From NCBI GenBank assembly GCA_963667365.1, contig OY763324.1, forward strand, positions 4,606,509 through 4,670,508: a DNA stretch of 64,000 nt, in the 5' to 3' direction. Positions 13,280 to 30,700 of the stretch are shown here, in pieces. Position numbers and translations under genes: made by a program. Positions within the stretch are counted from its first letter, which is position 1. Every line of letters begins with the position of its first letter. Source of the stretch: Candidatus Poribacteria bacterium (GTDB taxonomy: Bacteria; Poribacteria; WGA-4E; WGA-3G). Below the pieces are notes generated by a model, which worked only from the letters and a program-made list of their open reading frames with translations, was not told where the DNA came from and did no database searches.

Positions 13280-13315
13280 TCGTTTGGTTTCTTTTTGTTG
13301 AACGGATTAATGGAA

Positions 13316-13987: not shown

Positions 13988-14160
13988 AGTTTACTCACCT
14001 ATTGGGTATCTTGAGCGTTTTCCGTTCACTGGATAATTTAAAGAATCAATCTATTAAACATTTTAGCACATAATTCCCTACAATTCAACTCCTATAGAAT
14101 ACATTAAACAGGAAGGCGCGCTTACAAAGCGCGCCTGTTGAACAATACAACTGAAAAACA

Positions 14161-17100
14161 TTATTCCGCTTTCGGCAATGTTGGCAGTGTTAAACGTGGA
14201 CGGTCACCAAAATCGGGGAGTTCGGGTGGGTTTTCTTCCATTTCCTCAAGGAGGAGTTCTATTGCCTTATCAAGTTGTGGGTCACCCTCAGCAATGTAAT
14301 CCTGTGGACGGTAATCTACTTCAATGTCTGGATCAGTACCGTAGTTTTCAACACTCCAACCGACATCTTCGAACCAGAAAGAGTACTCAGGTTGTGTTGT
14401 GGAACCTCCATCTACAAACCCTTGATGTGGTGATATTCCGATGACACCACCCCAAGTTCGTTTACCGATTAACTTTCCTAACTTCATTAGCTTGAAACAG
14501 TGAGAGAATATATCACCATCAGAACCCGCATTTTCGTTGGTAACGGTTACCATTGGTCCTAACACAGATGCAGCAGGATATGGGTTCGGTGTACCCCATC
14601 GTGGATGGGCATATCCAATACGACGGCGAGACAACTTTTCTAAAATGAGTTGCGAGACATTACCTCCACCGTTATAACGTACATCAATGAGTAGACTGGG
14701 ATAACTAACTTCTGCCAAGTATCCCCGATGGAATTCCGCATATCCACGTCTTCCCATGTCAGGGATATGGACGTATCCTACCTTACCATCCGTTTTTTCG
14801 TGAACGTACTTTCGATTTTGTGCTACCCATTCACGATACCGTAACTCGCTTTCACCGCTAAGGGTTTTGATGGTGACAACGCGTTTCTCTCCATCTTTAG
14901 CATTTTTGAAGGTTGCTTGCACCTCTTGTCTACCCAGATTGACCAATAACTCACCTGGTGAGATATTTTGACTAACAGATTGCCCACCAATCGCAAGCAA
15001 TATGTCATTTTCTTGAACATTAATTCCGGGAGCGTTCAACGGAGAATCCCTTCTCTCATTCCAAGTATCTCCTCGAACTATGTGTGTAATACGATATCCG
15101 TTATTGTCTGGATCGTAGACATAATCAGCACCGAGAAATCCTTGTCCGTAGTTTGGCGAACTGCGGTAATCACCACCAGATTCATACGCATGTGATGTAC
15201 CCAGTTCTCCTTGCATTTCCCACATAAGGTCAGAAAATTCCGCACGGGTTGCTATCCTATCAAGTAATGGTAGATAACGTTGATATACGTTTTCCCAATC
15301 CACATCGGACATATTTTCTGTCCAGAAATAATCGCGCTGAAGTCGCCACGCTTCGCGATACATTTGTGCCCATTCTGCTGTTGGGATAACGGAGGGTCTG
15401 ATTCGGTTAATTTCTATCCAACCAGTATGACGATTAGAGCCTTTGTTCTCAGACTTTTGACCTTCTTCAACTTTTCTGCCAGCTTTTATAACACGCAACC
15501 GATTTCCTGTGCGATACACAAGAAACTTATTGTCTCGTGAGAGTTGGAAGTTATCAATATCTGAAACGAGAACTTCCTTCTTCTGTTCTTTGAAATCGTA
15601 AACATGGAGTTTACCTTTAGATCCTGAATCCTCTTCACCAGGTGAATTCTGGGTGTGTCTAACGGGAAAAGTAGTAAAAATCACTTTTCCCTCAATCCCA
15701 TCAATCTGTCCGTATCGTCCATGCGAATAGGGAAAAGCGACTATACGTTGTTCAATACCATCTAATTCAATATTAATCGGTTTTTTCTTTTTCTCTTCAG
15801 CTTTCTTTTTAGCATCTTCATCTTTCTCTGATGACTTGTCTTCAGAATCTTTGTCCTCTTTATCCTCTTTTTCTTTGTCTTTTTCATCTTCTGGTGATGG
15901 AGCAGCAGGCACAAATGGGTTGGGTAAATCCTTCTGCAAGGTCACCAACAGTGGACGTGTAGCGATAGGGAAACTAAGGTCAAAGTGTAACGCATCACCA
16001 ACAGGATCAAATTCCCGTTGGGAGAAAAAATATAGGTATTTTCCATCTGGATCCCATGCGGGTGCATAGTCTTTGAATTCAGGTTGTGTAACATACCAAG
16101 TTTCACCTGTTTCAACTTTACAAAGCTTAATTGATGAAGTAGTTTCTGTAGCAGGAAAACTATAGGCGATCCATTTACCATCTGGCGACCAATTTGCACC
16201 TTGGATGCGGTTGTATAGGCTTTTGTCAAGTACCCGCAGTTCTGAAGTTTCCAATTCTATATGGAGAAGTTCAAAACGGTGATTAACGATTAGGATCTGA
16301 TCTTTTAAGTTATCACCTTTAGGACATACGACCAGTTGTCGGACATGTCCTATATCCAATTCGTCAAGTCGACGTATCTCATCACTACCGTCGCAGGTAT
16401 GGATTTCTAACGCTTCCTCGCCATCTGTATCAGAGAGGGTAATGACACGTTTTCCATCGTTCAGCCATTGTGTCTTACGGTAGCGAGTACCGTTACGTTT
16501 ACCCTGTTGTAGAACGGCACCATCCCAATTTGCCATTGTGAATAGTTTTCCACGAGAAGTTAAGGCAAGAGATTGACCCTTAGGAGATGGTGCAAATTCC
16601 TGCAGATATTGCGAGGCACTTACAAATTTTCGTTGTCGTTGAATACGTGGACTGCGGAATTCAACATCAACTTTATAATTGTTATCATTTTCAATATCGT
16701 AGACCCATAGGTCAGCACCGGCATGGTAGACGATGCGTGTACCATCAGTTTGTGCTGATCTGCTATAATATGTTTCTTGATGTGTGTGACGTTGCATGTC
16801 TTCACCAGAAGTCAGACATGAGTAGATATTTCCAACACCTTCGTGATCTGAGATAAAATAGATACGTTCCCCTACCCACATCGGTGTAGTAAAATTACTA
16901 TCAACTGGAGTCAAAGGTTGAAATTGTCCATCACCCTCGTTGTCTAACCAGAGTTGACCTGCAGTTCCACCACGATAACGTTTCCATCGTGCGGGTTCAC
17001 GTGTCAACCTACCGAGTATAACACCACCATTACTGCCAAATGATATGTGGTTTGCTGGACCGTAGGGAAGTCGTTGTGGTTCTCCACCTTCTTGAGAAAT

Positions 17101-17445
17101 GCTCCATATCCACGCTCCGAATGCAGAACCAGCAGCACTGGAATATAGAATGTTTTCTCCATCTACATCCCACCCGACAATACTGGCATTGCTTCCTTGA
17201 TATGTAAGTCGTTTTGCTTCTCCTCCGAGTGCTGGCATGACGTATACTTCCGCTGGACCTTCTTCACGTCCAGCAAACGCGAGTAGTTCACCGTTTGGTG
17301 ATAGTTGTGGGGAACTTGTTGCACCAAGATTTGATGTGAGCCTACGTGCTACTCCACCAGTGATTGGGACTGTCCACAAATCATCCTCACATACAAATAC
17401 AATAGTTTCATTGGAAATAGTTGGGAATCGAAAATATCCTGACAT
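14161..17445 (-). CDS. tri: Tricorn protease homologue (beta-propellers plus PDZ plus S41-type peptidase)
   Basis: 1094 aa. IVFVCEDDLWTV and LIGKRTWGGVIGISP match Thermoplasma tricorn IIFVCCDDLWEH and LIGTRTWGGVVGITP. Acidic KE-rich insert at about aa 500-560. Confidence 0.85.
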   Translation of the reverse strand: MSGYFRFPTISNETIVFVCEDDLWTVPITGGVARRLTSNLGATSSPQLSPNGELLAFAGREEGPAEVYVMPALGGEAKRLTYQGSNASIVGWDVDGENILYSSAAGSAFGAWIWSISQEGGEPQRLPYGPANHISFGSNGGVILGRLTREPARWKRYRGGTAGQLWLDNEGDGQFQPLTPVDSNFTTPMWVGERIYFISDHEGVGNIYSCLTSGEDMQRHTHQETYYSRSAQTDGTRIVYHAGADLWVYDIENDNNYKVDVEFRSPRIQRQRKFVSASQYLQEFAPSPKGQSLALTSRGKLFTMANWDGAVLQQGKRNGTRYRKTQWLNDGKRVITLSDTDGEEALEIHTCDGSDEIRRLDELDIGHVRQLVVCPKGDNLKDQILIVNHRFELLHIELETSELRVLDKSLYNRIQGANWSPDGKWIAYSFPATETTSSIKLCKVETGETWYVTQPEFKDYAPAWDPDGKYLYFFSQREFDPVGDALHFDLSFPIATRPLLVTLQKDLPNPFVPAAPSPEDEKDKEKEDKEDKDSEDKSSEKDEDAKKKAEEKKKKPINIELDGIEQRIVAFPYSHGRYGQIDGIEGKVIFTTFPVRHTQNSPGEEDSGSKGKLHVYDFKEQKKEVLVSDIDNFQLSRDNKFLVYRTGNRLRVIKAGRKVEEGQKSENKGSNRHTGWIEINRIRPSVIPTAEWAQMYREAWRLQRDYFWTENMSDVDWENVYQRYLPLLDRIATRAEFSDLMWEMQGELGTSHAYESGGDYRSSPNYGQGFLGADYVYDPDNNGYRITHIVRGDTWNERRDSPLNAPGINVQENDILLAIGGQSVSQNISPGELLVNLGRQEVQATFKNAKDGEKRVVTIKTLSGESELRYREWVAQNRKYVHEKTDGKVGYVHIPDMGRRGYAEFHRGYLAEVSYPSLLIDVRYNGGGNVSQLILEKLSRRRIGYAHPRWGTPNPYPAASVLGPMVTVTNENAGSDGDIFSHCFKLMKLGKLIGKRTWGGVIGISPHQGFVDGGSTTQPEYSFWFEDVGWSVENYGTDPDIEVDYRPQDYIAEGDPQLDKAIELLLEEMEENPPELPDFGDRPRLTLPTLPKAE

Positions 17446-17710
17446 TCACACCTCCACGGATTGAGTTAGTAATAATTGAATAACATTTCCTATTATGTTA
17501 ATTTACTGTCGTTGTAGAAATAACATAGACACATTATTGTAAGAAAGGAAAAAGACTAAATGTAATAGGCGAGGCACCATATCACATCAAATGTATCAAA
17601 ACATTCAATGAGGACCTCGCCATACAGATTCAAGATTCAAGTCTAAGACAAGACACGCATATGGTCTTAGTTTATTGATAGCAATTGCAAACTTGGAGGA
17701 AGAGTATATT

Positions 17711-20704
17711 TCACTCTAATTTTGCCTGCTCTTCAGAACTTGATGGGTCTCCAAGCCAGAGTTCTACAGCCGGACTGCTTGCGATGCGTCTATTTCCAAC
17801 TGAAGCATTTATGACAAATGTATACGGTCTTGTCTGCTTATTTCCGGCGAACGGGTTTCGGCGTAGTTCGTTAGTACCGCTGGTAATAATGTTTGGTATA
17901 AGGGTTATTGTTGCCTCCGATTTACCTCTTCGGAGTACAGTGGTTTCTCGTTGGAGTCTCACTCCGAACGGTAATCCGACTACAGTTAGGTTCATGTTCT
18001 GTCGATTCCCATTACGTCTATTAACACTGACGGTAATATCAACCGGTCCATCTGGTGTTACTATAACTTCATTAGGGGTTGCAGATACGATGATGGGTGA
18101 GGACTCAGTAACACTCACAACCACGTTCTTGCGTTGTACAGTCTGATCATTATTCCGAATACGATATACCTGTATTGGGGTAGCTGCACGTCGTATCTTA
18201 TGTCCGGTTGCCGTATTCACAGTACCGACTACCTGAACGACGCTATGTGCCAAGTCCGCGTCTGCTGCAGCGGTCAGGGTTAGATACCCTTGGTTATTAC
18301 CACCTTCAGAAAGAATAGCACTCTGACTTGCTGTAATTCCTGGAGGTAGATTTTCAACTGAAAGTAGTATCGGTTCCGTAAACCCAACTCGACGTTGGAG
18401 TGTAACTTCCAACAACACTGTTCCACCCCGTCCAATGTTCGGATTGTCTGGTGTCACTGAAATAGCAAAGTCAGGAACGGTTGGACGTATGTCTAAGTGG
18501 TATACATAACCTGCTCCACCTTTACCAGATACATCTTCAACGCGAAGTGCATATTCCCCCGGACGTGCAAAACTGTAATCAATAATTGCATTTCGTCTGC
18601 CACCTCTACCAGCATTATTTCTTAATACCCGACCTTCCGCGCTTAACAATGTCAAGGAAGGACTCAGAGGAGAATTCAGTTTTTCTGCAGATAAATCGAT
18701 GGAATATCCACCGATATCTGCGAAAAATCCCCATGGACCGTATCCATTCGTAACCTTAACGAGAATTTTGTTCCTACCTTTTTTAACCGGTAATTCAATA
18801 ACGTCATCGCCTCGGTTTAAAGGTCTATGTACATATTTGCTGAAAATGAGTTTATCGTTTACCCATATCTTTATGGTGTCATCTGACCCAAGTGATAGGA
18901 TGTACTTCTGGTCCCGTTTAGATTGGAAGTAAGTTAGAGCATATCCAGTCACATCATCTTCTGGCACACTGGAAAAGACATTTTCGCCTCTACTGTTGGT
19001 TCTATACCATTTAATCCGTCTTCCCTCTTTTCCTACATATTCCTTCTTTAAATCAATTTCTATTTCAGGTGGGAAGACATTTTCATAACCTTTCTCGTCT
19101 GTGTTGTCAAATGGGTGAATCACCCACCAAGGACCGAGACGTGAACCTTCTTCAATAGTAAAGCGGTAATAGTCCACCTCTCCCGGTTTAGAAATACGTC
19201 CGCTGATCGCACCTGGGGTTGCGACTTGTTGTGAACTTTCAATCCGTTTGGCAATAAGCTGCCCCATCCGGACGACTTCTTCAGCGACAAAAGCGATGAT
19301 ACGATCCCGATCTGTGTCGGTAATATCAGCATTTTCTTTCCCTGCCATACGAGTGATGGTTGCTTCCCACTGTTCGGAGGTAAGTGCACGGTTTTCCGGT
19401 GAACGAAGCTCATGGCATGCTGTGCATTTACCTTGAAATAAAATTTCGGATTCAGCATTCTTAGCATGCTCTTCGTTTTCTTCAGCAATATCTGTGGCTT
19501 GGTTATCAGCATTTGCATCTACCGATTGTTCTACTTCCTCAGAATATTGGTTAGCGATAAATGGGAATATACCGTAAGAAGTACGTATGAGTGTTACCCC
19601 TGGCTGCTGATCACTCGGTAATTCAATTTCCAATTCAGTTTCTGGCAGATTTTCACCACCAATTGTGGTTTTAGTTTTAGTGCCAATTTTACCACCTGTT
19701 GGGTAAATATAGGTATTATATGGGACTACACCGATTATCAAACGGTATACAGAATCTGGATTTCCACGATAGAGTAGGTCTCGAATACGAAGGAAGTAAG
19801 TTCCATCATCAGGTAATGTATAGTCAATTAGTGGATCAAGACTAAAAAATCCGTTGCTGCGTGCAAGTTCCGTTCCTTGTGAATCAATTAAGGAGATAGT
19901 AGGATTAAAGAAGGTCTGGCTGATGTTGTTATATCTATATGCTTTTACATTGAAAACACATCGTTCTCCTTTTAATCCTTCAAAAGTGAAGTAATCTTCG
20001 TCACCACCTGAATTGATGACCCCATTGACAATGATCGGTAATTCAATATCAGATGCGGATTCGGTGTCGTTATTTGATTCAATCTCAACAGTATCAGGTA
20101 CATCTGTTACTTCAAAGGGCCATGCAGTAGAAGCACCGTTTTTACCAACGATACGAATTTCACGTACACCGATTTGGGCATCAGGTGCAATTTCTAACTC
20201 AACAGTCATGCCACCTGTTGCCTTCGCGGCAGATTTTAGGTAATGAACGATGTTTGTTTGATCGTCTTCACTGATTTCTGCACCTTTGTCCTGCACCATA
20301 CGTTTTACAACAGCTGTCCACTGTGTTCCTGTCATAGAACGATTGCTTGGGGAACGGAGTTCATGACACTGACCACAATTCGCTTCAAAAACAGGTTTAT
20401 GCGTTTCATCAACTTCCCCACCACCTGGATTGAGTTTTCCAGTGATGCCAGGGTCACCTTCAACAATAAGTGTATGCGCACCGTCTAAATCTGAACCTTG
20501 TATTTTTACCTCAACCGTTTTTCCAACTTGTGCTCCTGCGGGAAAAAGAGAATTTAGACGTGGAGTGGCTTGAGCAAACACAGTAATAGGCGCACACATT
20601 GAAACAAGGAACATCAATAGCAGAATCTGTTGTACTCTTAACATTGAAATGAAGTTGAATTGTTGATTATTACAGAATAAAATAAACTTATTTCGTACCC
20701 ACAT
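17711..20704 (-). CDS. Secreted Planctomycete-type cytochrome c (PSCyt) domain protein with Ig-like domains
   Basis: Signal peptide. Two CxxCH motifs (CGQCHELRS, CTACHELRS), each followed by ...W...RM. Confidence 0.6.
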   Translation of the reverse strand: MWVRNKFILFCNNQQFNFISMLRVQQILLLMFLVSMCAPITVFAQATPRLNSLFPAGAQVGKTVEVKIQGSDLDGAHTLIVEGDPGITGKLNPGGGEVDETHKPVFEANCGQCHELRSPSNRSMTGTQWTAVVKRMVQDKGAEISEDDQTNIVHYLKSAAKATGGMTVELEIAPDAQIGVREIRIVGKNGASTAWPFEVTDVPDTVEIESNNDTESASDIELPIIVNGVINSGGDEDYFTFEGLKGERCVFNVKAYRYNNISQTFFNPTISLIDSQGTELARSNGFFSLDPLIDYTLPDDGTYFLRIRDLLYRGNPDSVYRLIIGVVPYNTYIYPTGGKIGTKTKTTIGGENLPETELEIELPSDQQPGVTLIRTSYGIFPFIANQYSEEVEQSVDANADNQATDIAEENEEHAKNAESEILFQGKCTACHELRSPENRALTSEQWEATITRMAGKENADITDTDRDRIIAFVAEEVVRMGQLIAKRIESSQQVATPGAISGRISKPGEVDYYRFTIEEGSRLGPWWVIHPFDNTDEKGYENVFPPEIEIDLKKEYVGKEGRRIKWYRTNSRGENVFSSVPEDDVTGYALTYFQSKRDQKYILSLGSDDTIKIWVNDKLIFSKYVHRPLNRGDDVIELPVKKGRNKILVKVTNGYGPWGFFADIGGYSIDLSAEKLNSPLSPSLTLLSAEGRVLRNNAGRGGRRNAIIDYSFARPGEYALRVEDVSGKGGAGYVYHLDIRPTVPDFAISVTPDNPNIGRGGTVLLEVTLQRRVGFTEPILLSVENLPPGITASQSAILSEGGNNQGYLTLTAAADADLAHSVVQVVGTVNTATGHKIRRAATPIQVYRIRNNDQTVQRKNVVVSVTESSPIIVSATPNEVIVTPDGPVDITVSVNRRNGNRQNMNLTVVGLPFGVRLQRETTVLRRGKSEATITLIPNIITSGTNELRRNPFAGNKQTRPYTFVINASVGNRRIASSPAVELWLGDPSSSEEQAKLE

Positions 20705-20762
20705 TGAATGTTACCTCCACAATGTTCGGAAATTGATTTCAAACTCCTACCACTATACTCCA

Positions 20763-21815
20763 TTAGAATTCGTGGGTTAATCTATTGTTTTGGATATTCC
20801 AGATTCGGACTTTTCCATCACGGCTACCAGCTGCAACACGATTCCCATCTCGACTTATTTTTACCGCGTAAACAGCATCTGTAGGTTCATTAAAAGTTCT
20901 GCGTCTGTTTCCAGATAGAATATCCCAAATTATCACGGATGAATCTGCACTCCCGGATGCGATAACTTCTTGATTATTCCATACGCCGCAATCTACACTA
21001 TAAACAGGACCTTGATGTCCATTAAAAGTGCGATCTGCAGAACCTCGTGTATTACCATTGTTGTCTTGTGTTACTCGCCAAGATCTGACTGTGTTATCTG
21101 CAGAACCGGAAACAATTAGGTTTGATCGTGTTCCATACGCAAGGGAATAGACAGAATCATCATTGCCATCAAAACTAACAAGGACCGTATAGTCATCAGG
21201 ATTCCACACTTTTAGTGTCTTATCTTCACTGCCAGTTACGAAATAATTTCCGTTCGGATGGTATAGTGCACAGAGTACTCTGCCCACGTGTTGTGTTAAC
21301 CATTTTGCCTGATCGTCTAAAGGTGTATCATCATCAAGATTTTCTAAATCGATGACAGCACTAAATTCGTCCATACTGGCAGTGAGTAATTTTGCATTAT
21401 CAGGACTGATAGCGATAGATTCAATTGTATCGGCATGAATCTCAAATGTATTGATGAGTTCTTCTGTAGCGACATTCCACATACGAATTTCACCACTACG
21501 TGCTGCCTGACCACCGCCTGCATACAACAATCTACCATCAGATGAAAACTTCAGACATCTGACTCGACCAGCGTGTGGTTCGTATGCATGGATCATTTCC
21601 TTTGACTCTAAATCCCAGAGTTCAACCCACTGATATTTACCGACTGCCAGTGTTTTTCCATCTGGACTAAATTCAAGTGCCCAGATAGGAGATAACGCCA
21701 CAGCTCTTTCTTGTGATTTTTCGTCTGCTTGTATAATAATATTCCCAATCAGAGAAATAAGAAAAAGCAATAGGATTGATAAGAAGGAAAGAATTTTTTT
21801 ATTACGGTTTTTCAT
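20763..21815 (-). CDS. Secreted WD40 beta-propeller repeat protein
   Basis: Signal peptide. Repeated ...SGSADNTVRSW / GSRDGKVRIW WD motifs. Confidence 0.7.
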   Translation of the reverse strand: MKNRNKKILSFLSILLLFLISLIGNIIIQADEKSQERAVALSPIWALEFSPDGKTLAVGKYQWVELWDLESKEMIHAYEPHAGRVRCLKFSSDGRLLYAGGGQAARSGEIRMWNVATEELINTFEIHADTIESIAISPDNAKLLTASMDEFSAVIDLENLDDDTPLDDQAKWLTQHVGRVLCALYHPNGNYFVTGSEDKTLKVWNPDDYTVLVSFDGNDDSVYSLAYGTRSNLIVSGSADNTVRSWRVTQDNNGNTRGSADRTFNGHQGPVYSVDCGVWNNQEVIASGSADSSVIIWDILSGNRRRTFNEPTDAVYAVKISRDGNRVAAGSRDGKVRIWNIQNNRLTHEF

Positions 21816-22031
21816 TTGTCAATTCTATTTGTAATAACGAGGGTGGGTCATTATGATGAGAAAATAGGGAAGGATTGTAGTAGGAGATACAGTGAAATCT
21901 GCTACAACAAGTTACCCAATGTTATCCGATGTTCAGACAACAAAAACGTCCCAGCCTCTGTTAGCAGCAGATAGCGTGAGATCAACGGACAACTGTTGAT
22001 CTCGCGCAATATGATAGAGTGCGTTTTCTGA

Positions 22032-23345
22032 CTAAGCCAAGACACCCCGGATTGGTCGTCCGCCTCGTGAAAGGACAATACGGACACCATCAGGAGATTC
22101 AATGCTCTGATTGTAATCAATACCGAGACTCTGATAGATGGTTGCTGACAAGTCTTCAGGTTTGACAGGTGTCTCGGCAGGTTCCATTCCAAAGGGATCG
22201 GATGCACCAACAACTTGTCCACCTTCGACTCCTCCACCTGCTAACATAATAGAGAAAACACGTGGATGATGGTCACGTCCACCGTTTCGGTTGATGACAG
22301 GAGTTCTACCGAATTCACCCATAGCAACTACGAGTGTGCTGTCAAGTAAGCCACGTTCTGAGAGATCATTAATCAGTGTAGCCATTGTCTGGTCAAATGC
22401 ATTGAGTTTCCCCGGCAAAAATGAGAAAATATTGTTGTGGTTATCCCAACCGCCATTACTGACAGTGACAAAGTTAACCCCAGCTTCAACAAGTCTTCGT
22501 GCAAGGAGACAACTTTGACCAAATGTGTCACGTCGATACGCCTCGCGTGTATTTTTGGGTTCCTTTGACAGGTCAAATGCCGCGCGAGCGTCCTCTGAAC
22601 TCATTAGATTGTAAGCTGCATTATAGAAGTCATCCATGGCTTCAACCCTTGGATTCCCTGCCTCATATTTCTTAAATGCGTTATCAACAGCTTGACGCAG
22701 GTCCTTTCGGTCTTCGACGCGTTCATAAGAGACCTCTCTTGGAGGTTCTAAATCTCGGACTTTGAAATTATTACTCGCTGGGTTACCATCCGGCGAAAAC
22801 GGGTCAAGTGATGCTCCTAAGAATCCTCCACCTGCGTAAGCGACTGGTGAGGGAATAGCGATATAAGGTGGCAAAGCACTCCGTTGTTCTTTGAGTTCGG
22901 CGACAACAGCACCATGACCAGGAACAGCAAATCCGGGCAATGGTTGATAACCTGTAATCATATAATGTGTTCCCCGTTCATGTGCAGCTTCGGGAGATGT
23001 CATAGAACGTATGATACAGAGTTTATCAGTTTGTTTTGCAAGCCTTGGCATATGTTCACTAATTTGTATACCGTTGACATTTGTCGGAATAGGTTTAAAC
23101 AGACCACGGATCTCTTCAGGTGCATTGGGTTTAAGATCCCACATATCAAGATGACTTGGACCTCCACCTAACCAAACAAGAATAACAGATTTGGCAGATG
23201 CTGGGTTAGCAGTTGGTTTTGCATACGCTTTTAATCGGAAAAAGTCTGTAAGACCGAACCCAAAAAGACCAAGGACACCAGCCTTAATAAGATCTCTGCG
23301 ATAAAATCCTTCGCAGTCTGTATTTGTGCAGTTTCTTTCGGGCAT
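22032..23345 (-). CDS. DUF1501 family protein (sulfatase-like, Tat-secreted), the usual partner of PSCyt/DUF1549-DUF1553 proteins in Planctomycetes/Verrucomicrobia
   Basis: Twin-arginine signal RRDLIKAGVLGL. ...GGWDNHNN...GEFGRTP...GRDHH motifs. Confidence 0.7.
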   Translation of the reverse strand: MPERNCTNTDCEGFYRRDLIKAGVLGLFGFGLTDFFRLKAYAKPTANPASAKSVILVWLGGGPSHLDMWDLKPNAPEEIRGLFKPIPTNVNGIQISEHMPRLAKQTDKLCIIRSMTSPEAAHERGTHYMITGYQPLPGFAVPGHGAVVAELKEQRSALPPYIAIPSPVAYAGGGFLGASLDPFSPDGNPASNNFKVRDLEPPREVSYERVEDRKDLRQAVDNAFKKYEAGNPRVEAMDDFYNAAYNLMSSEDARAAFDLSKEPKNTREAYRRDTFGQSCLLARRLVEAGVNFVTVSNGGWDNHNNIFSFLPGKLNAFDQTMATLINDLSERGLLDSTLVVAMGEFGRTPVINRNGGRDHHPRVFSIMLAGGGVEGGQVVGASDPFGMEPAETPVKPEDLSATIYQSLGIDYNQSIESPDGVRIVLSRGGRPIRGVLA

Positions 23346-23661
23346 AGTTGTTCTCCTAAAATTGGTTAGCAGTTATCTCATAATTCTAAAAACTATCAAC
23401 ACTCATGAGATATATTCCAATATGTTGGATGTCTATATGTCAAGATGACCGTTGACAAGTTGAACATTCATTTCACTAACATTGTTGCTTATTATATCGG
23501 AGGGTTTTACCTTGGTGATATGCGAAATATGGAACGAAAACCATCCTAACCGCACTTCAAGATATCAGATTGATTAATTATATCGTATTAAAAGGTGTAT
23601 GTCAAGGGAAAATGACACAAATCAAAGTCATGTTATTTATACTGTTTCTTAGGAATTATTT

Positions 23662-25122
23662 CTACATTCTTTGACGAAGTCTTAGTGCTCTGAGCCATCT
23701 TTGTGCTTTAGGAACTGAAGTATCAAATGGTTCTTTCATTTCATAACATTCAGTTTGTCCAGCATAAATGTGGTGCCAGTCAACTATACACGGCATTTTC
23801 TGTTTTTTTAGGTTTCGCATTAGATACCCGCGGACTCTTGCACGAGTATCACGAGGAGCATTGCTAATTGCATGACTAATTTGGTCATCAGTGATTACAC
23901 GTCTGATACATCCTTCACTTTGAAGTGCATAGAATATTCCGTTATCAGGATCAATATTGTGATATTCTAAATCGAGACTTTTGAGCCATGGGTCGTCCCA
24001 TGTCAGTTCCTCTTCAGTTATTAGTGCCTCAAGAAACCACTTTTTTGCCGCCCAATCAAGGCGAGTTGTAAGGCGGGTCCAATCTACTTCAAGGTCATTA
24101 AGTACAGTTTCCCATTCCGTGATGACCCATTGTGCCGTTTCATCAGGGTTGGTTATTACCTCTTGTACAAAGTTTAGGTACTCTCGCTGAATGTCAATAG
24201 CAGATACCGTTCTGCCGTTTTGCAGATCAACCTGCCATTCAAGGGTGGTATCCCGTGAGATATGTTTGATAGCAGCAATGGGATCCATAAGTTCAAGGTT
24301 AGGAATAGGTAGTTTTTCACCATGAATGTCAAAATGTTTCTCAATTGCATCAAGTACAAGTGCAGTTGTGCCTACCTTGAGTGCCGTCGCATACTCCGAC
24401 ATGTTAGAGTCCCCGACAAGTAGATGAAGTCTGCGGTATTTTGTATAGTCGCTAAGCGGTTCGTCCCGAGTATTGATAATCGCGCGGCTAAACTGAATCC
24501 ATTCATAGATTTCAGTGACGATATGATCCGCCCTTTGTGATATTTGGTAACCGAGAAAGTCGTCAACACTGTATTGTCCATCTCCAAATTCAAGGATGTC
24601 ATCGTACCCACCTACTCTACCAGCACCTGCGAAAATTTGCCGCGTTACGAAAAACGGAAGGAGAGTAGGAATAACGATTCTATAGAAAGGAACATCTCGT
24701 CGCGCCTGAAAGTTTTCATGGCAACCAAATGTAGCACCTGTAAAATGATCTATGTTATTTTTGTAAAAGGCTACGTGAGAGGACCGACCGGTATCTTGTA
24801 GAATTGCTGTTATGACGTGTTCAATGGCTTTATCATAAGCTATAAGGTCAAAAAGGTTGGCACATTCTGGTGTGGCATATTCAAGATGTCCCATATCAAT
24901 GTAGAGTCTGCCACCATTGAAGAGAAAACCACCATTACCTGGAGGTTCGCCCCAATCACGATAGTGGAGATCGGGAATACCGAGTTGAACTTCTTTGAAA
25001 ACATAGTCCCTAACGTTCGCAGCAACACCTTCAGGGGATACCTTTATACGCTGTGTTTGCATTGTCTGCGGCTGAATCATGCATCCAAATTCAGTTTCGA
25101 TTCCCATTATTCTGTAAGTCAC
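23662..25122 (-). CDS. pafA: Pup (UBact) ligase PafA
   Basis: MTYRIMGIETEFG N-terminus of the PafA/Dop carboxylate-amine ligase family. No Dop-loop insertion. Positioned downstream of prcA. Confidence 0.8.
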   Translation of the reverse strand: MTYRIMGIETEFGCMIQPQTMQTQRIKVSPEGVAANVRDYVFKEVQLGIPDLHYRDWGEPPGNGGFLFNGGRLYIDMGHLEYATPECANLFDLIAYDKAIEHVITAILQDTGRSSHVAFYKNNIDHFTGATFGCHENFQARRDVPFYRIVIPTLLPFFVTRQIFAGAGRVGGYDDILEFGDGQYSVDDFLGYQISQRADHIVTEIYEWIQFSRAIINTRDEPLSDYTKYRRLHLLVGDSNMSEYATALKVGTTALVLDAIEKHFDIHGEKLPIPNLELMDPIAAIKHISRDTTLEWQVDLQNGRTVSAIDIQREYLNFVQEVITNPDETAQWVITEWETVLNDLEVDWTRLTTRLDWAAKKWFLEALITEEELTWDDPWLKSLDLEYHNIDPDNGIFYALQSEGCIRRVITDDQISHAISNAPRDTRARVRGYLMRNLKKQKMPCIVDWHHIYAGQTECYEMKEPFDTSVPKAQRWLRALRLRQRM

Positions 25123-25171
25123 GGATTTGTTCCTTTATTGGATAGTTGGAATCATCCATCGGTTGCCATTA

Positions 25172-25939
25172 TCATTTTTCGGTAAAAGCCTTAATTTCAT
25201 CTTGAGTTAGAATACGGAATTTAGTGTCTGAAGGTAGCGTATCATCTAATATACCTACTTCTATTTCTCCATCCTCCAATTCTGTCTTTATGATGTCATC
25301 TATCTGTTCGTCCGTTACTTCTGCATCATCTTCTGCTTCTTCAAAACGTTGACTTAATAATCTGCCAACTGCCCATGTTTTGAGTCCTAACTGTAACGCA
25401 ACGGTAAAACTTCGATCCGAATCAGTTTCTGTTGCCGCAAGGTAGTCTTGCATAGCATTTTCGATTTCCATGGTTCCACCAATCACTGCTGACTCATGGT
25501 GGATGTTGACATTTCCATCGTAGTTAATATGTGTAAATTGTGACGTAGCATCTCCATCGCCAATTTCAACAAGGAGCATTTTGATAATGTATGCCTCACC
25601 AGCAATTGCTTCAAATGCCTGTTTGAAGGTGTGTGCCAATACATAATGAGTTAATCGATGTAAATTCACATCTTCAGTGGCACTTTGAAATGCTTGGACG
25701 CTTGCAGTATCTGTAACAAGCATTCGAAGACGTTCAATGTCGGCAGGGTGACCGATAGCAGAGAGGGCAATTCTGTCATGAACTTCAAATATTTTCTGTG
25801 CACCTTTCGTAACAGTTAAAAGGAGGCTGCCTTTTTCATAAGGTAATCCGACGACAGGACTACCGAGTCTAAGTTGGTCTTCAATATAGTCGCGCCGGTC
25901 CTGAATTGCTTCAATCCAACGATACGGCAGATCACGCAT
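25172..25939 (-). CDS. prcA: Proteasome alpha subunit (ORF open from 25960; likely start MRDLPY at 25939, overlapping the prcB stop as TAATG)
   Basis: ...YRWIEAIQDRRDYIEDQLRLGSPVVGL alpha-type N-terminus. Acidic C-terminal tail. Confidence 0.8.
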   Translation of the reverse strand: MRDLPYRWIEAIQDRRDYIEDQLRLGSPVVGLPYEKGSLLLTVTKGAQKIFEVHDRIALSAIGHPADIERLRMLVTDTASVQAFQSATEDVNLHRLTHYVLAHTFKQAFEAIAGEAYIIKMLLVEIGDGDATSQFTHINYDGNVNIHHESAVIGGTMEIENAMQDYLAATETDSDRSFTVALQLGLKTWAVGRLLSQRFEEAEDDAEVTDEQIDDIIKTELEDGEIEVGILDDTLPSDTKFRILTQDEIKAFTEK

Positions 25940-26820
25940 TATGTAGCCTCCACATAACAATCTTTTAAGAATTCATCGGTGAGAGTTTCTACTCCCTGTT
26001 GTGTAATGGTTTTGACAGTAGGAAATATTTCGGCTTTTGCGTTGTATCCGCTGGTTGCCGCATCATATTCGCTTGCTGTATCAAGCAGTCGTAGGATAGT
26101 GATGGTTGCCAGTCGTTGATCCATATCCTCTAATCGAGTATCACCCCATCGATCAATATAACGTAATACCCCTCGGATCCATATTGAACCCGAACCTGTC
26201 GTAGCAAAGTCTACATTCTCAAAGTGTGCGCCGAGTGCATCGTAGAAGTAAATTTTCCCACCGTTCTCAGATTCATCTTTTTGTGGAGTATACAAAGCAA
26301 AGATTGGGATTACCGCGCCGATGCCTTGCATTGCCATTGGCAGATTATCACGTATAAGACGTGAAAGCGTTCGGAGTTTACCTTCAACACTCAATTCCTG
26401 AAGTTGGCTTCGTCTGAAATATTGGAATGAGTGTTTTAAGACACGTGCTATCTCATAAGCCATTGCAGGTGCACCAGAGATAGCAAGAACAGAATGCGTA
26501 TCAATTGGTAAGACTTTCTCAGCACGGTCATGAACAACGGAAGTTCCAGCAGTTGCGCGCCGATCTCCTGCGATGATAATTCCATCTTGATATCGCACAG
26601 CAACAACCGTCGTGGCTTCCGGTATTTCCAGTGTAGAGCCAGGAGTTTGTTCCCCTTGGGAGAGAAACTGATTAGTATCGCGCAACGGTTTTTTGCCGAC
26701 ACTAAAAAGGTCATGCTTTGCGATCATTTCAACTTCTGATGTGTTGAAGGCGACTTCAGTATCATCTGGCAAGGTGGCTGAATGTTTTAATAAACTGAGA
26801 AAGTCACCTTTATGGTTCAT
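25939..26820 (-). CDS. prcB: Proteasome beta subunit with propeptide
   Basis: Propeptide followed by ...ATTVVAVRYQDGIIIAGDRRAT (N-terminal Thr nucleophile after processing). Confidence 0.8.
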   Translation of the reverse strand: MNHKGDFLSLLKHSATLPDDTEVAFNTSEVEMIAKHDLFSVGKKPLRDTNQFLSQGEQTPGSTLEIPEATTVVAVRYQDGIIIAGDRRATAGTSVVHDRAEKVLPIDTHSVLAISGAPAMAYEIARVLKHSFQYFRRSQLQELSVEGKLRTLSRLIRDNLPMAMQGIGAVIPIFALYTPQKDESENGGKIYFYDALGAHFENVDFATTGSGSIWIRGVLRYIDRWGDTRLEDMDQRLATITILRLLDTASEYDAATSGYNAKAEIFPTVKTITQQGVETLTDEFLKDCYVEAT

Positions 26821-27017
26821 TATTCCCCCGTTCTTTGTCGGTACCGCCGGGATTGGTCTTTGTCAACGCGGCGCATACGTTTTAACAGTTCTTGTGTATC
26901 CGGTCTGTTGACATCGGGACGTTTCGGTGCGTTACTATCGTCTCCACCATCATCGGGTTCAACTGGTTTTACCGGTCTTTGTTTACGTTCGGGGAAAAAG
27001 GCAGTCTGGTCTTTCAT
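26820..27017 (-). CDS. pup: Pup-like small protein modifier (UBact-like): 65 aa, disordered, C-terminus ...RQRTGE
   Basis: Sits in the canonical pup slot between dop and prcB. Stop overlaps the prcB ATG by 1 nt (ATAATG). Low-complexity charged sequence ending in Gly-Glu. Confidence 0.6.
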   Translation of the reverse strand: MKDQTAFFPERKQRPVKPVEPDDGGDDSNAPKRPDVNRPDTQELLKRMRRVDKDQSRRYRQRTGE

Positions 27018-27071
27018 TTGAAATATCTCCTTAATCTACTATACGGAAGCAGTTTGCATTACAAACCGTGG

Positions 27072-28589
27072 TTAACTCAAGCCAAGTTTTTCAACAAGGG
27101 TTTGTGGGTTAGGGGACAGGTCAAGTGCTTCATTATATTTTCGTGCGATTTTAGCGTCTGCAAGAGAGTTCATATTGATTGTAACAGGTTTACCATTGAT
27201 GTCAAAGGTAATGCTATCCCATTGAACAGTTTTGATTGAATCTTCAAACTTATTGAGAGATTTTCCTCGAAAATAAGCACGTGTGTCCAATGGAGGCGTA
27301 TGTATAGCGTGTTGGATCTGTTCGTCTGTTATAACACGTTTCATTTGTAAACCATAAAATAAACCCTCATCCATATCAATGTTATGGTATTCCAAATCAA
27401 TGCTCTGTAGCCATGGATCATCCCATGCAATATCTTCAGATTCAACGAAGGTTTCCAACAACCACTTTTTTGCTACCCAATCAAGTCGATCAGTAAGCGT
27501 CATGGGATCAGTTTCAAGTGTGTTGAGTGTTTCTTCCCACTGTGTCAAGACCCAATCAGTATCTCCATTTTGATGAGCGAGATGTTTCTGGGCGAGTGCA
27601 AGATACTCACGTTGATGGTCAATTGCACTCATCATTTTACCATCAACTTTTTGTAACATCCAGCGATAGGTTTGGTCATGAGAAATCACTTTGATAGTAT
27701 CAATGGGGTTAGCAATTGCAATATTCTTAGGAATAAGCCGTTGTTCAATAAGATCAATAACAAGAGCAGTAGTTCCGACCTTGAGTGCCGTTGCGTATTC
27801 GGACATGTTTGCATCCCCGACGATTCCGTGAAGCCTTCGGTATGTCGCTGGGTCCGCGTGTGGTTCGTCACGGGTATTGACAATCGGACGTTTGTGCATC
27901 GTATCCACACTCGCTTCAACATGAAAGAAATCAGAACGTTGGGTGAGTTGGAAATGTCCTGGTGTTGCAAGTCCTGCCTCGGTTTCTATACCTATCTTAC
28001 CTGACCCAGCAAAAATTTGTCTTGTCACAAAAAACGGTAGGATACATGCCTTGAGATAATCAAACGGAACTTCTCGCGCCATAAGATAGTTATCGTGACA
28101 ACCGTAACTATGTCCATAAAAATCTGTATTGTTTTTATATAGGAGAACACGTTGTCCAAGTTCTTGACTACGTCGTTCAGCACATTTGTAAAGTATACGT
28201 TCACCTGCTTTGTCATGTGCCACGAGATCAAATAGACTTTGACATTCTGGTGTGGAATATTCCGGATGTGCATGGTCATTGTAAAGACGTGCACCGTTAA
28301 TTAGGATACGGTCACTCTTTATTTCCCGGAAGGATCGTCCTGGTTCTTTAGCAAATCGTTCGCGATCTCGTTTTTCTTCCTCAACTTCGTCTGGGTGGTT
28401 ATTTAGATGTTCTGCGCGGAATCCGCGTTCATCCCGAAAGGGGTCTTCACCATCATAGTCCCATTGAGGCAAGAAAGGATCACGCCGATAGTTTTTTATG
28501 AGTTCAATGGATTCCTTAACGGGATCAATCTGTTCTGCATTTTCAAGTGTGATTCCGTATTCGGTTTCGATTCCAAAAAGTCTGTGCAT
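27072..28589 (-). CDS. dop: Depupylase/deamidase Dop
   Basis: MHRLFGIETEYG N-terminus, plus a roughly 40-aa acidic Dop-loop insertion (...DYDGEDPFRDERGFRAEHLNNHPDEVEEEKRDRERF). Upstream of pup. Confidence 0.8.
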   Translation of the reverse strand: MHRLFGIETEYGITLENAEQIDPVKESIELIKNYRRDPFLPQWDYDGEDPFRDERGFRAEHLNNHPDEVEEEKRDRERFAKEPGRSFREIKSDRILINGARLYNDHAHPEYSTPECQSLFDLVAHDKAGERILYKCAERRSQELGQRVLLYKNNTDFYGHSYGCHDNYLMAREVPFDYLKACILPFFVTRQIFAGSGKIGIETEAGLATPGHFQLTQRSDFFHVEASVDTMHKRPIVNTRDEPHADPATYRRLHGIVGDANMSEYATALKVGTTALVIDLIEQRLIPKNIAIANPIDTIKVISHDQTYRWMLQKVDGKMMSAIDHQREYLALAQKHLAHQNGDTDWVLTQWEETLNTLETDPMTLTDRLDWVAKKWLLETFVESEDIAWDDPWLQSIDLEYHNIDMDEGLFYGLQMKRVITDEQIQHAIHTPPLDTRAYFRGKSLNKFEDSIKTVQWDSITFDINGKPVTINMNSLADAKIARKYNEALDLSPNPQTLVEKLGLS

Positions 28590-28650
28590 TATTTATGTCT
28601 TTCTACGGTATGTAAGACAGATGTATAAGGTATAAAATTAAAATAAAGAA

Positions 28651-30477
28651 CTATATCACCGGACTCGGTGTTTTTCGCTGTTCCCTCTTTTCAGATAGAA
28701 TAGGCGTGACTTTGACAACATTCACAGGATCGTAATCTAAGAGTTTTAACCAATCCTCTGTAGCTTCCGTCGGTGGGAAAATATCGTTTTCGCTAAATTC
28801 TGCATTGAGTGCATCTATCAGGTCATCTGAAGATATACCTGTCTGCGTTTCGGGAGAAGCAATAGCACGTTTCATAGCAGTTTCTTTTGCTCTTTGAACA
28901 ATAGACTCAATAATCGCACCACTGCAGAGATGACCACGGTAAAGTATGTCACGTCTTCCGCTGCGGAGAGCAACTTCAAGGAATCGATTTTCTGATGTCT
29001 CACGGAACATTTCATCTACAACTTGTGTAATCAAATTATCTATGACTTCCTTATCTGCGGTATCTCCTGTTTCAGATTCAATGGGTAGGTCTTGAGTAAG
29101 GTAGATACTAAATATATCCTTGGCTGCATCTTTATTGGGACGTGTGACTTTAATTTTTCTATCAATTCTTCCGGGACGCAAAATGGCAGGATCAATTAAG
29201 TCTGGTCGGTTTGTTGCCAGAATGATGACTACTTCCTGTAATGGCTCAATACCATCCATTTCTGCACAGAACATTGGCACGAGTGTGTTAGAAATACTGT
29301 GTGATCGCATAGCGCGACGTGTGCCTAAAATAGATTCCGCTTCATCAATAAAGACAAACGCAAGTTTACCCTCAGCACGTTTTTCGCGTGCAGAAAGAAA
29401 GATTTCTCTGACTTTCCGTTCCGATTCACCCAACCACATATTGAGTATTTCGGGACCTTTAATGTGAAGAAATGCTCCTTCAATCTCTTCACCAGACTCT
29501 GTCTTGAGACGTTCTGTTAAGTTATAGGCGGTGGCTTTTCCGATGAGTGTTTTACCACATCCTGGAGGACCGTGGAGGAGAAATCCTTTTGGGACAGTAT
29601 ATTGAAACTTTTTAAAGAGTTCAGGATGTAGAATCGGCTGCTCAATTGTATCTTTTATTCGTTGAATAGTTTCGTCAAGACCACCTATTTTCGACCATGG
29701 TATTGGTGGCACAGCTTCAAGTGCATAGTCGTTCCGTTCTTTTGAAGCAATACGTTCAAGTGCAACTTTTAAACTGGAATCAAGCCGTACTTCGTCACCC
29801 GTCTTTAACTTTACATCAACTAAGTCAGCAGCACGTTCAATTATAACAGATTGTAGACTCGGTTCTGACCCAACACGCAACCTGCCATCTGATAGTACAT
29901 CTGCAATTTTGGCAATTGGTCCCGATTCGTTATAACCAAGTTCACCAACTACGACGAAGGCTTCATTCAGAAGGACACTAACACCTGTTTTTAAGTTTTC
30001 TTTTTCCAGTTGTGGGTCAATATTGGCATAGTATTCTGACCCGCCTACGGTAACGCGCGCTGTATCGTCTTGAGGGACTGCAAGGAGAGTTCCAATGCGA
30101 TTTGCTGGTGCTGTCAGTTTTTCAATTTGTTCATCCATCTCATCGCGTATACGCTCTGCTTCCTGGACTATGGCTCGAACTCTTTGTCGGAACTCACCTT
30201 CATCGTTAATGATAGACCGACGTAATTCAATCAGCAAACGTCGTCTTCGGTCTTCCACAGGAGTTTCTGAGATGATTTGGTGAATCAGATGTAAGGAATA
30301 GCCGGAACTCGCCTCATCTCCAACGATCTCATCTTCTTCCGGTTCCAACTCCTCCTCGTCATCAAAAAAAAGTTTCTGATCGTCCGGACCTATGTCAGCA
30401 TTGCTACGGTTTTTCTTATCGTACATTTTGTACGTCTCCTCAGACAGAATGGGTGACTTTACGATAAAGTTTACCAC
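28651..30477 (-). CDS. mpa: Proteasome-associated AAA+ ATPase (Mpa/ARC). Likely start MYDKKNRSN at 30426.
   Basis: Coiled-coil N-terminus, OB region, AAA module GPPGCGKTL...VFIDEAESIL. First gene of the pup-proteasome operon. Confidence 0.85.
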   Translation of the reverse strand: MVNFIVKSPILSEETYKMYDKKNRSNADIGPDDQKLFFDDEEELEPEEDEIVGDEASSGYSLHLIHQIISETPVEDRRRRLLIELRRSIINDEGEFRQRVRAIVQEAERIRDEMDEQIEKLTAPANRIGTLLAVPQDDTARVTVGGSEYYANIDPQLEKENLKTGVSVLLNEAFVVVGELGYNESGPIAKIADVLSDGRLRVGSEPSLQSVIIERAADLVDVKLKTGDEVRLDSSLKVALERIASKERNDYALEAVPPIPWSKIGGLDETIQRIKDTIEQPILHPELFKKFQYTVPKGFLLHGPPGCGKTLIGKATAYNLTERLKTESGEEIEGAFLHIKGPEILNMWLGESERKVREIFLSAREKRAEGKLAFVFIDEAESILGTRRAMRSHSISNTLVPMFCAEMDGIEPLQEVVIILATNRPDLIDPAILRPGRIDRKIKVTRPNKDAAKDIFSIYLTQDLPIESETGDTADKEVIDNLITQVVDEMFRETSENRFLEVALRSGRRDILYRGHLCSGAIIESIVQRAKETAMKRAIASPETQTGISSDDLIDALNAEFSENDIFPPTEATEDWLKLLDYDPVNVVKVTPILSEKREQRKTPSPVI

Positions 30478-30678
30478 ATTTCTAACTTAATTTGCGAATC
30501 TTTTCACCATTTGCAATTATCTTAACAGATTAAGGTTTATAGATAGATATTGCTTAAATGTTGTCTTAATTGTGGTAATTGTTATTATTTTAGCATATTT
30601 TGCAGATAGTTGCAAGTTAAAATATAGTGAGTTTCAATAGCATTTTCTGTCTACTGTCATTTATATCTCTGATAGATT

Positions 30679-30700
30679 TAAACAAACTCGAGTTTGTTTA
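30679..30700. promoter_or_regulatory. Perfect 22-bp palindrome taaacaaactcgagtttgttta about 200 bp upstream of mpa
   Basis: 11-bp arms, no spacer. In the AT-rich leader of the proteasome operon. Confidence 0.4.

Follow-up and report, generated by a model that had tools for sequence, protein, structure and literature searches.

Does a tricorn protease gene lying 6 kb from a bacterial proteasome operon mark a conserved route from proteasome to tricorn? An earlier note on this DNA proposed such a route from the gene order in the window, which is the whole stretch of 64,000 nucleotides analyzed here and comes from a Candidatus Poribacteria chromosome, a sponge-associated-type bacterium. To our knowledge, little has been established about what becomes of peptides once the bacterial proteasome has made them, and we know of no experimental characterization of UBact systems. 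A conserved tricorn-proteasome cluster would have offered a testable handle on post-proteasomal peptides. A literature search found no paper tying together UBact, Poribacteria and tricorn.

The UBact operon, the exported trio and the tricorn gene

All genes from mpa through tricorn lie on the minus strand. The proteasome operon comprises, in the direction of transcription:

28651..30477, minus strand: mpa/arc-like proteasomal AAA ATPase, 608 aa (Pfam AAA, Prot_ATP_ID_OB_N, Prot_ATP_ID_OB_C)
27072..28589, minus strand: Dop-like Pup_ligase-family protein, 505 aa (Pfam Pup_ligase, 2.5e-164)
26820..27017, minus strand: UBact modifier, 65 aa, C-terminus RQRTGE (Pfam UBact PF20513, E 3.7e-18)
25939..26820, minus strand: prcB, 20S proteasome beta subunit, 293 aa (Pfam Proteasome, 2.5e-21; top NCBIfam match 20S_bact_beta)
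25172..25960, minus strand: prcA, 20S proteasome alpha subunit, 262 aa (Pfam Proteasome, 5.7e-05; NCBIfam 20S_bact_alpha, 6.2e-17)
23662..25122, minus strand: PafA-like UBact ligase of 486 aa, closing the operon (Pfam Pup_ligase, 4.3e-139)

Inspection of these genes indicates that the set described earlier as a complete pup-proteasome operon is indeed all present: two paralogues of the Pup-ligase family, both subunits (alpha and beta) of the 20S particle and an AAA ATPase of Mpa type, as in UBact-proteasome operons. Its modifier is nevertheless UBact and not Pup: the 65-aa protein matches the UBact family of small disordered modifiers, has the C-terminal Gly-Glu of that family and scores 74.6 bits against NCBIfam NF033388 (ubiq_like_UBact), above the cutoff of 35. 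The listed order pafA-prcA-prcB-pup-dop-mpa also required correction, as transcription runs mpa-dop-UBact-prcB-prcA-pafA, an arrangement kept in 80/80 Poribacteria loci (best 80 of 587) and in non-poribacterial loci. In NCBIfam, mpa matches pup_AAA best, its 454.6 bits falling short of the 504.75 set for the actinobacterial equivalog, and the Dop-like protein matches depupylase_Dop best, scoring 483 bits where the cutoff is 492. The PafA label rests on gene order because NCBIfam gives a near-tie for this protein (PafA 370 bits versus Dop 366 bits). Clustering at 50% identity places the UBact-type PafAs in a single cluster.

Between pafA and tricorn lie three further genes and several predicted signals:

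23577..23605, minus strand: predicted sigma-70 promoter TTGACA-17-TATAAT upstream of DUF1501 (12/12 consensus positions)
22032..23345, minus strand: DUF1501 protein, 437 aa, Tat-type signal RRDLIK...AYA (Pfam DUF1501, 1.4e-114; N-terminus by eye)
20763..21815, minus strand: WD40 beta-propeller protein, 350 aa, hydrophobic N-terminal signal/anchor (Pfam WD40, 6.7e-54; N-terminus inspected)
17711..20704, minus strand: exported c-type cytochrome-like protein, 997 aa, signal-like N-terminus (CXXCH at residues 110 and 427)
17561..17626, minus strand: predicted hairpin with U-rich tract in the gap between the cytochrome gene and tricorn (-25.6 kcal/mol, z -4.4)

The DUF1501 and WD40 assignments made earlier were reproduced. 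The third protein, then called PSCyt, gave weak cytochrome-c and PPC matches in Pfam and no match to the PSCyt or PSD families at E <= 1e-3. Export signals are predicted for all three trio proteins, and tricorn has no signal peptide. From pafA through DUF1501, WD40 and cytochrome to tricorn, the intergenic gaps measure 316, 216, 58 and 265 bp. The promoter, as TTGAC-N17-ATATAAT, is kept among relatives, including two loci (L167 and L169) whose trio no longer follows pafA. None of 200 shuffles was as stable as the hairpin before tricorn, its GGCGAGG...CCTCGCC arms are kept in relatives, and it is likely a terminator or attenuator. An Rfam search of 13000-31500 returned no match. These gaps and predicted signals argue against a single transcription unit from pafA through tricorn, and the DUF1501, WD40 and c-type cytochrome proteins, with their export signals, do not belong to one pathway with their flanking genes. 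Judged from these sequence predictions, the UBact operon, the trio and tricorn are not one operon.

Tricorn and its surroundings are as follows:

14161..17445, minus strand: tricorn protease homologue, 1094 aa, no signal peptide (Tricorn_C1 8.5e-26, PDZ_Tricorn 1.1e-22, Peptidase_S41 2.9e-23)
15778..15903, minus strand: KE/D-rich low-complexity insert, residues about 515-556, second propeller (between the two HMMER stretches aligned with 1K32)
14521..14523, minus strand: codon of catalytic Ser975, equivalent to T. acidophilum Ser965 (alignment of NENAGSDGD with NEYAGSDGD)
14114..14136, minus strand: intrinsic-terminator-like hairpin 3' of tricorn (10-bp stem, 7 GC pairs)
12077..13279, minus strand: acetate kinase (ackA), downstream neighbor of tricorn (Pfam Acetate_kinase, 2.9e-112)

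The reported size, strand and position of tricorn were confirmed, with 6,216 bp separating the pafA stop from the tricorn start. So was its description as a bona fide tricorn with PDZ and S41 catalytic serine regions. The protein matches Thermoplasma acidophilum tricorn (1K32, 1N6D) end to end at E 8e-178, the collinear HMMER alignment with 1K32 covering residues 7-514 and 571-1078 in two stretches. Its domains follow the tricorn order of beta-propeller, beta-propeller, C1, PDZ and C2 (S41); PD40 was also matched in Pfam, and for close homologues there are precomputed matches to Tricorn_N and Tricorn_2nd. Ser975/Asp976, Ser751/His752 and Glu1033 align with Ser965/Asp966, Ser745/His746 and Glu1023 of 1K32, and Ser975, His752, Ser751 and Glu1033 are invariant across 11 Poribacteria tricorn sequences. 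We take Ser965/His746 with Ser745 and Glu1023 to be the catalytic set in T. acidophilum numbering. The basic pair Arg131-Arg132 of archaeal tricorn, presumably the anchor of the substrate C-terminus, has no counterpart, as the 7-residue 1K32 loop 'tgrrmft' falls opposite a gap when this protein is aligned with 1K32; this lowers confidence in an identical carboxypeptidase specificity and leaves homology unaffected. The published tricorn profile G-S-X-G-D-X(15,25)-R-T-W-G-G (PMC3511314) is matched from residue 974: GSDGDIFSHCFKLMKLGKLIGKRTWGG. On these features the protein is a bona fide tricorn homologue and is probably cytosolic. AlphaFold, given 11 close sequences, produced a monomer model of poor quality (mean pLDDT 47.5). 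The KE-rich stretch quoted earlier was located as listed and proved to be lineage-wide, occurring in every Poribacteria tricorn compared with variable length and sequence. Since it is present phylum-wide irrespective of tricorn-proteasome adjacency, the insert is not tied to that adjacency.

Tricorn-proteasome adjacency among relatives

To follow the gene order through the phylum, 80 Poribacteria species genomes with a UBact operon (the best 80 of 587) were surveyed by a scan of genome contigs, with tricorn scored as absent when not within 10 kb of pafA. Tricorn was present in 13, absent in 54 and unjudgeable in 13. The neighborhood survey that the earlier note had called for cuts both ways: adjacency recurs in 13 species across three PafA clades, and it is missing from 54 of the 67 assessable species (best 80 of 587), which is not a conserved adjacency. 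Lack of co-localization in related genomes, named in advance as the sign of a fortuitous arrangement, is largely what was found. The trio follows pafA in 43 of the surveyed species genomes (best 80 of 587). That is to say, the UBact operon is linked far more tightly to the exported DUF1501-WD40-cytochrome unit than to tricorn.

PafA identities among the adjacent genomes extend down to 63%. This layout is shared by L001, L006, L008, L010, L012, L013, L017, L025, L041 and L166; L065-L067, with a PafA identity of 67-68%, have it too. On a single-protein, neighbor-joining, midpoint-rooted PafA tree, the adjacent state is found in a single clade A genome and, within clades B and C, on basal branches; the Fitch minimum is 9 changes. 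Two named genes would fall within 10 kb on one side in a ~5 Mb genome with an estimated chance of roughly 0.2%; the recurrence of adjacency in relatives reflects shared ancestry and not independent events. Recurrence over three clades at such PafA identities could also reflect weak selection in place of pure inheritance.

Remnants of an older order are seen in several loci. Tricorn follows pafA directly in L077, pafA-tricorn-ackA is found in L063, and pafA-ackA in L081-L083; L167 and L169 still hold trio and tricorn together, split from pafA, and about 30 species (best 80 of 587) have pafA and trio without tricorn. This pattern fits an ancestral order of pafA, trio, tricorn and ackA that would have been broken at least seven times. 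Beyond the breaks the neighbors are housekeeping genes of unrelated function (NuoF, SecDF, GT9, a sigma factor), and DDE transposases lie near the breaks in L007 and L167. That clade B loci without tricorn contain only big insertions was rejected for the loci examined, where housekeeping genes follow pafA. The pafA-tricorn gap in L077 is just 213 bp, which could mean co-transcription and counts against separate units. In both L063 and L077 the tricorn gene is frameshifted.

On three complete chromosomes, the UBact operon and tricorn lie about 3.7 Mb (OZ253447.1), 0.86 Mb (OY282383.1) and 3.6 Mb (OZ242310.1) apart, as taken from locus coordinates of identical-length records. As a synteny control we used ackA, which lies 3' of tricorn in L002, L166, L174 and L063 and directly 3' of pafA in L081-L083; tricorn retains ackA downstream about as often as it retains the proteasome. 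With non-poribacterial PafA queries, tricorn was found beside the operon in 0 of 82 Pup-ligase loci (824 kb in total) from a metagenome scan, two of which are Poribacteria-like and only 10 of which are operon loci with at least 7 kb downstream.

Poribacteria often carry a second, classical Pup operon (GGQ-ending Pup) that shares a chromosome with the UBact operon, its PafA only 36% identical to the UBact-operon PafA of the window. In L169 tricorn lies 6.4 kb from this Pup operon, an oddity if tricorn position is meaningless. A general link of tricorn to the classical Pup operon was rejected, as it was seen in L169 only and the Pup operon of L170-L173 has another conserved context without tricorn.

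Readings of the gene order

We consider it probable that three separate transcription units stand side by side through shared ancestry, their adjacency not detectably selected. The first, mpa-dop-UBact-prcB-prcA-pafA, would tag cytosolic proteins with UBact and then degrade them; the second, the trio on its own promoter, would yield the exported Tat-signal DUF1501, WD40 and c-type cytochrome proteins; the third would be the tricorn gene by itself, a monocistronic unit whose peptidase is cytosolic. They would adjoin because pafA, trio, tricorn and ackA formed an old Poribacteria order, already present in the ancestors of at least the two larger PafA clades, which may have decayed repeatedly by rearrangement, at times beside transposases. 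Tricorn would most likely act as a general cytosolic oligopeptide trimmer downstream of ATP-dependent proteases, including the UBact and Pup proteasomes, a role that we infer from the Thermoplasma paradigm. Its position beside the operon is under no detectable selection.

The adjacency had been taken as a conserved proteasome-to-tricorn module, and selection could indeed have kept tricorn near the UBact operon as a dedicated peptidase for proteasome products, with proximity aiding co-regulation or co-inheritance. Both are cytosolic proteolytic machines, the tricorn catalytic residues are intact, and tricorn works after the proteasome in the Thermoplasma paradigm (PMC3511314); the 13 adjacent species in three clades (best 80 of 587), the L077 arrangement and the second co-localization in L169 also agree with such a cluster. 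It is made unlikely by the loss of adjacency in 54/67 assessable species (best 80 of 587) through at least seven apparently independent breaks, by loci megabases apart on three chromosomes, by the lack of any case among the 82 loci (824 kb) from non-poribacterial queries, by a predicted promoter and hairpin and exported proteins between pafA and tricorn, by the tricorn-free context of the Pup operon in L170-L173 and by the similar retention of ackA.

A variant would make the ancestral pafA-trio-tricorn order the relic of a true pairing, with tricorn as the UBact proteasome's dedicated post-proteasomal peptidase and the phylum-specific KE loop serving in docking or gating. We hold this to be quite improbable; if true, Poribacteria would have an archaeal-style proteasome-tricorn cascade beside a second, Pup-based proteasome. 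A functional tie of tricorn to the trio, for example in turnover or maturation of its components, would account for L167 and L169 keeping trio and tricorn after loss of the pafA linkage, but is very doubtful given that the trio has export signals and tricorn none, that about 30 species (best 80 of 587) have pafA and trio without tricorn while L077 and L063 have tricorn without the trio, and that a conserved hairpin separates them. A one-off accident of a single genome, suggested by the functionally unrelated intervening genes and the many close relatives without adjacency, is refuted by the recurrence of the layout in the ten loci from L001 to L166 and in L065-L067, and we give it almost no credence.

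Under the favored reading of three inherited units, the adjacency is an old, often-broken gene order and therefore says little on the joint working of the two proteases; as a decaying historical neighborhood, the linkage is unfit as guilt-by-association evidence. The proteasome-to-tricorn route is plausible on biochemical grounds, to which adjacency adds little. Poribacteria generally have an intact cytosolic tricorn and a UBact proteasome, often with a second Pup proteasome, and are a reasonable Gram-negative lineage for testing the Thermoplasma model. That a single chromosome carries both a UBact and a Pup operon merits separate attention.

Comparison with known systems

The operon resembles UBact operons of Gram-negative phyla (PF20513, NF033388) in the C-terminal Glu of UBact and in gene order, which is identical in the Latescibacteria-like L164 and L165 and in metagenome loci. 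Among the loci compared, the DUF1501-WD40-cytochrome trio follows the UBact operon in Poribacteria only, and then tricorn in a minority. Actinobacterial-type Pup-proteasome systems share homologous enzymes and operon logic, whereas the window operon has the UBact paralogue and enzymes below the actinobacterial equivalog cutoffs. The Streptomyces tricorn gene, we assume, does not adjoin the proteasome operon. As far as the account in PMC3511314 goes, the Streptomyces coelicolor tricorn homologue (Tamura et al. 2001) is likewise a bacterial tricorn alongside a 20S proteasome with Pup-type tagging, in another phylum and with Pup in place of UBact.

The closest known protein is T. acidophilum tricorn (PDB 1K32, 1N6D; MEROPS family S41), which shares the two N-terminal propellers, the C1, PDZ and S41 domains, the lack of a signal peptide, the Ser/His/Ser/Glu catalytic residues and the GGG oxyanion-region motif. 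In contrast, in the alignment of the two the short Arg131-Arg132 loop belongs to the T. acidophilum protein only, and the acidic/lysine-rich second-propeller loop, with about 35-40 extra residues, to the Poribacteria tricorn only.

Gene content and predicted expression of the region

ORF listing combined with Pfam and NCBIfam scans of the window reveals ten minus-strand genes in an uninterrupted series from mpa to tricorn, as the earlier note had described. Its naming of the operon and of one intervening gene has to be revised. Pup was rejected as the identity of the modifier, which ends in RQRTGE and belongs to the UBact family (PF20513, E 3.7e-18; NF033388 above its cutoff). The profile scan likewise found no PSCyt or PSD family in the 997-aa protein, where it returned weak cytochrome-c matches alongside two CXXCH motifs. 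The lineage belongs to Candidatus Poribacteria, going by how close homologues are named.

Features of the region, genes assigned by Pfam/NCBIfam
28651-30477 (-), mpa, proteasomal AAA ATPase
27072-28589 (-), Dop-like Pup_ligase
26820-27017 (-), modifier, 65 aa
25939-26820 (-), prcB
25172-25960 (-), prcA
23662-25122 (-), PafA-like Pup_ligase
22032-23345 (-), DUF1501
20763-21815 (-), WD40
17711-20704 (-), c-type cytochrome, 997 aa (weak matches, CXXCH motifs)
17561-17626 (-), hairpin then U-rich tract between cytochrome gene and tricorn (free energy -25.6 kcal/mol, z -4.4)
14161-17445 (-), tricorn, 1094 aa

Promoters, terminators and signal peptides were predicted from sequence. A perfect TTGACA-17-TATAAT promoter is predicted between pafA and DUF1501; the motif is kept in relatives and travels with the trio (DUF1501, WD40 and cytochrome genes) in loci L167 and L169, where pafA is missing. 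The trio forms a unit with its own conserved consensus promoter (17711-23605, minus strand; surveyed in L004-L083). The hairpin upstream of tricorn, with arms GGCGAGG...CCTCGCC, is conserved in many Poribacteria and matches nothing in Rfam; it may act as a terminator or attenuator, or may represent a repeat element. DUF1501 carries a predicted twin-arginine signal (RRDLIK), and the WD40 and cytochrome proteins have predicted Sec-type hydrophobic N-termini, so that the three intervening products would be exported, in contrast to the predicted cytosolic proteasome and tricorn.

Several other features were observed in the window. A 1154-aa ORF 5' of mpa (31124-34588, minus strand) has a weak AbiEi or DUF6088 match at its C-terminus and is ~63% conserved at the equivalent position in L009, L013 and L017. 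Two tandem paralogues of ~800 aa each (38336-43181, minus strand) place an AhpC/TSA-redoxin domain near residues 515-640, preceded by a long, uncharacterised N-terminal part. Restriction-modification type DNA-methylase genes (an Eco57I-family fragment and N6_N4_Mtase) occupy the left window end (58-3855, plus strand), a stretch of lower GC (~37%).

The tricorn homologue

The window protein is a bona fide tricorn homologue, as had been claimed. It satisfies the published profile GSxGD-x(15-25)-RTWGG (PMC3511314) at residue 974 and aligns over its full length with Thermoplasma acidophilum tricorn (1K32/1N6D, E 8e-178), the KE-rich segment splitting the alignment into two stretches. In this alignment, Ser975/Asp976, Ser751/His752 and Glu1033 correspond to Ser965/Asp966, Ser745/His746 and Glu1023 of the archaeal enzyme, and these catalytic-site residues are invariant across the Poribacteria tricorns compared. 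The protein is probably cytosolic, since no signal peptide is predicted at its N-terminus and the archaeal enzyme can be aligned from residue 7 on. Structure prediction with AlphaFold, based on 11 close sequences, gave a model of too low quality for use (mean pLDDT 47.5).

The short loop carrying Arg131-Arg132 in T. acidophilum tricorn is, in contrast, deleted in the Poribacteria enzyme, around residues 85-90. These arginines anchor the substrate C-terminus, and recognition of substrate ends may therefore differ in Poribacteria. The KE/D-rich insert (residues ~515-556), proposed earlier as a lineage-specific addition, is indeed present in all Poribacteria tricorns examined, with variable length and sequence, but it is not tied to the adjacency: it occurs with and without the proteasome as neighbor.

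Adjacency of tricorn and the UBact operon

We scanned PafA-centred loci, one genome per species, with 10-kb flanks, and compared them with the window's proteins by tblastn, where absence means not within 10 kb. Among these 80 Poribacteria loci (the best 80 of 587), all contain the six-gene UBact operon and 43 carry the trio 3' of pafA, whereas tricorn lies within 10 kb of pafA in 13, does not in 54 and was not assessable in 13. The trio is linked to the operon far more tightly than tricorn, and the adjacency is not generally conserved across the phylum.

On a midpoint-rooted neighbor-joining tree of PafA alone, genomes with the adjacency are spread over all three major clades: eight in clade B, which includes the window, four on basal branches of clade C, and one in clade A, with a pafA-tricorn gap of 213 bp. 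The Fitch minimum is nine state changes. Gene orders pafA-tricorn-ackA (ackA, acetate kinase; L063) and pafA-ackA (L081-L083), together with ~30 species that have pafA and the trio only, resemble relics of a single ancestral arrangement (pafA, trio, tricorn, ackA). Clade B genomes lacking tricorn have unrelated housekeeping genes 3' of pafA (NuoF, SecDF, a GT9 glycosyltransferase or a sigma factor), with a DDE transposase in addition in one. DDE transposase genes flank the trio-tricorn block or lie 3' of pafA in L167 (1-2218, 15988-17265) and L007 (15530-16849), genomes in which the pafA-tricorn linkage is broken, which points to IS-mediated rearrangement between pafA and DUF1501. Among relatives, the insert between these two genes varies in size from 0.09 to 6.7 kb. 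The tricorn genes closest to pafA (L063, 13056-16306; L077, 11617-14848) have no trio in between, and each carries one frameshift, at which the tblastn match breaks into two contiguous segments that differ in frame; this may reflect (long-read) assembly error or a pseudogene.

Tricorn-centred views are similarly mixed. The window's layout recurs around tricorns P0011 (83% identical) and P0002 (87%). P0015 and P0008 (83-84%) retain trio and tricorn with pafA gone, with transposases close by at P0015, and in four others (P0030, P0116, P0019, P0088; 73-79%) an ABC transporter takes the place of the window's upstream neighbors. On the three chromosomes where both loci could be placed, tricorn and the UBact operon are ~3.7 Mb (OZ253447.1), ~0.86 Mb (OY282383.1) and ~3.6 Mb (OZ242310.1) apart. 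As a control, tricorn retains ackA on its downstream side about as often as it retains the proteasome as a neighbor (window, L166, L002, L174, L063). The interval between tricorn and ackA appears to be a hotspot for insertions: it holds two small overlapping ORFs in the window (13414-13987, minus strand), one of the UPF0175 family, that resemble a toxin-antitoxin pair, and other small cassettes in relatives (HicAB in L169, TGT in L166, an HTH protein in L174).

Beyond Poribacteria, UBact-type PafAs of non-poribacterial origin served as seeds for a metagenome scan, which together with one look-up yielded 82 loci (824 kb). L099 and L119 look poribacterial, their PafA sharing at least 58% identity with that of the window, and they were excluded from operon counts. 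Proteasome genes lie beside pafA in 30 loci, and Latescibacteria-like loci show the same operon followed by unrelated opposite-strand genes. The adjacency was not recovered in this set, with no tricorn match at E <= 1e-3 in the 82 loci, a thin coverage in which only 10 of the 30 operon loci extend at least 7 kb downstream.

Origin of the adjacency and relation to known proteasome systems

The adjacency is real and predates this genome; it is also labile, limited to one phylum and not operonic. It probably represents inherited synteny in decay. That selection keeps tricorn near the UBact operon is unlikely given this lability, even though the adjacency recurs in three PafA clades, the pafA-tricorn spacing in L077 is 213 bp and the arrangement in L169 is odd. 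Decaying synteny also bears on the degradation route from proteasome to tricorn that the earlier note had read from the gene order. Such a route remains plausible in Poribacteria, whose cells contain both machines, each of them intact and cytosolic, but the labile, non-operonic adjacency lends it little support. Proteasome-to-tricorn processing is the accepted model for Thermoplasma, and tricorn is known from proteasome-bearing Streptomyces (PMC3511314); the Poribacteria gene neighborhood adds little to the Thermoplasma model.

Inspection of L169 reveals a second, non-orthologous proteasome operon of the classical Pup type (19707-23285, minus strand), whose Pup ends in YIQRGGQ and scores above the TIGR03687 cutoff, and whose PafA shares only 36% identity with the UBact-type PafA of the window. 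This Pup-type operon is widespread in Poribacteria, usually as LolA...RecA-mpa-dop-pup-prcB-prcA-pafA-PPDK without tricorn (L170-L173, 3984-11362). Judged by identical record length, UBact (L024) and Pup-type (L170) operons share one chromosome of 4,252,156 bp, and three more chromosomes match for both (5,626,040, 5,943,281 and 6,345,663 bp). The presence of two complete modifier-proteasome systems in a single genome may be previously undescribed.
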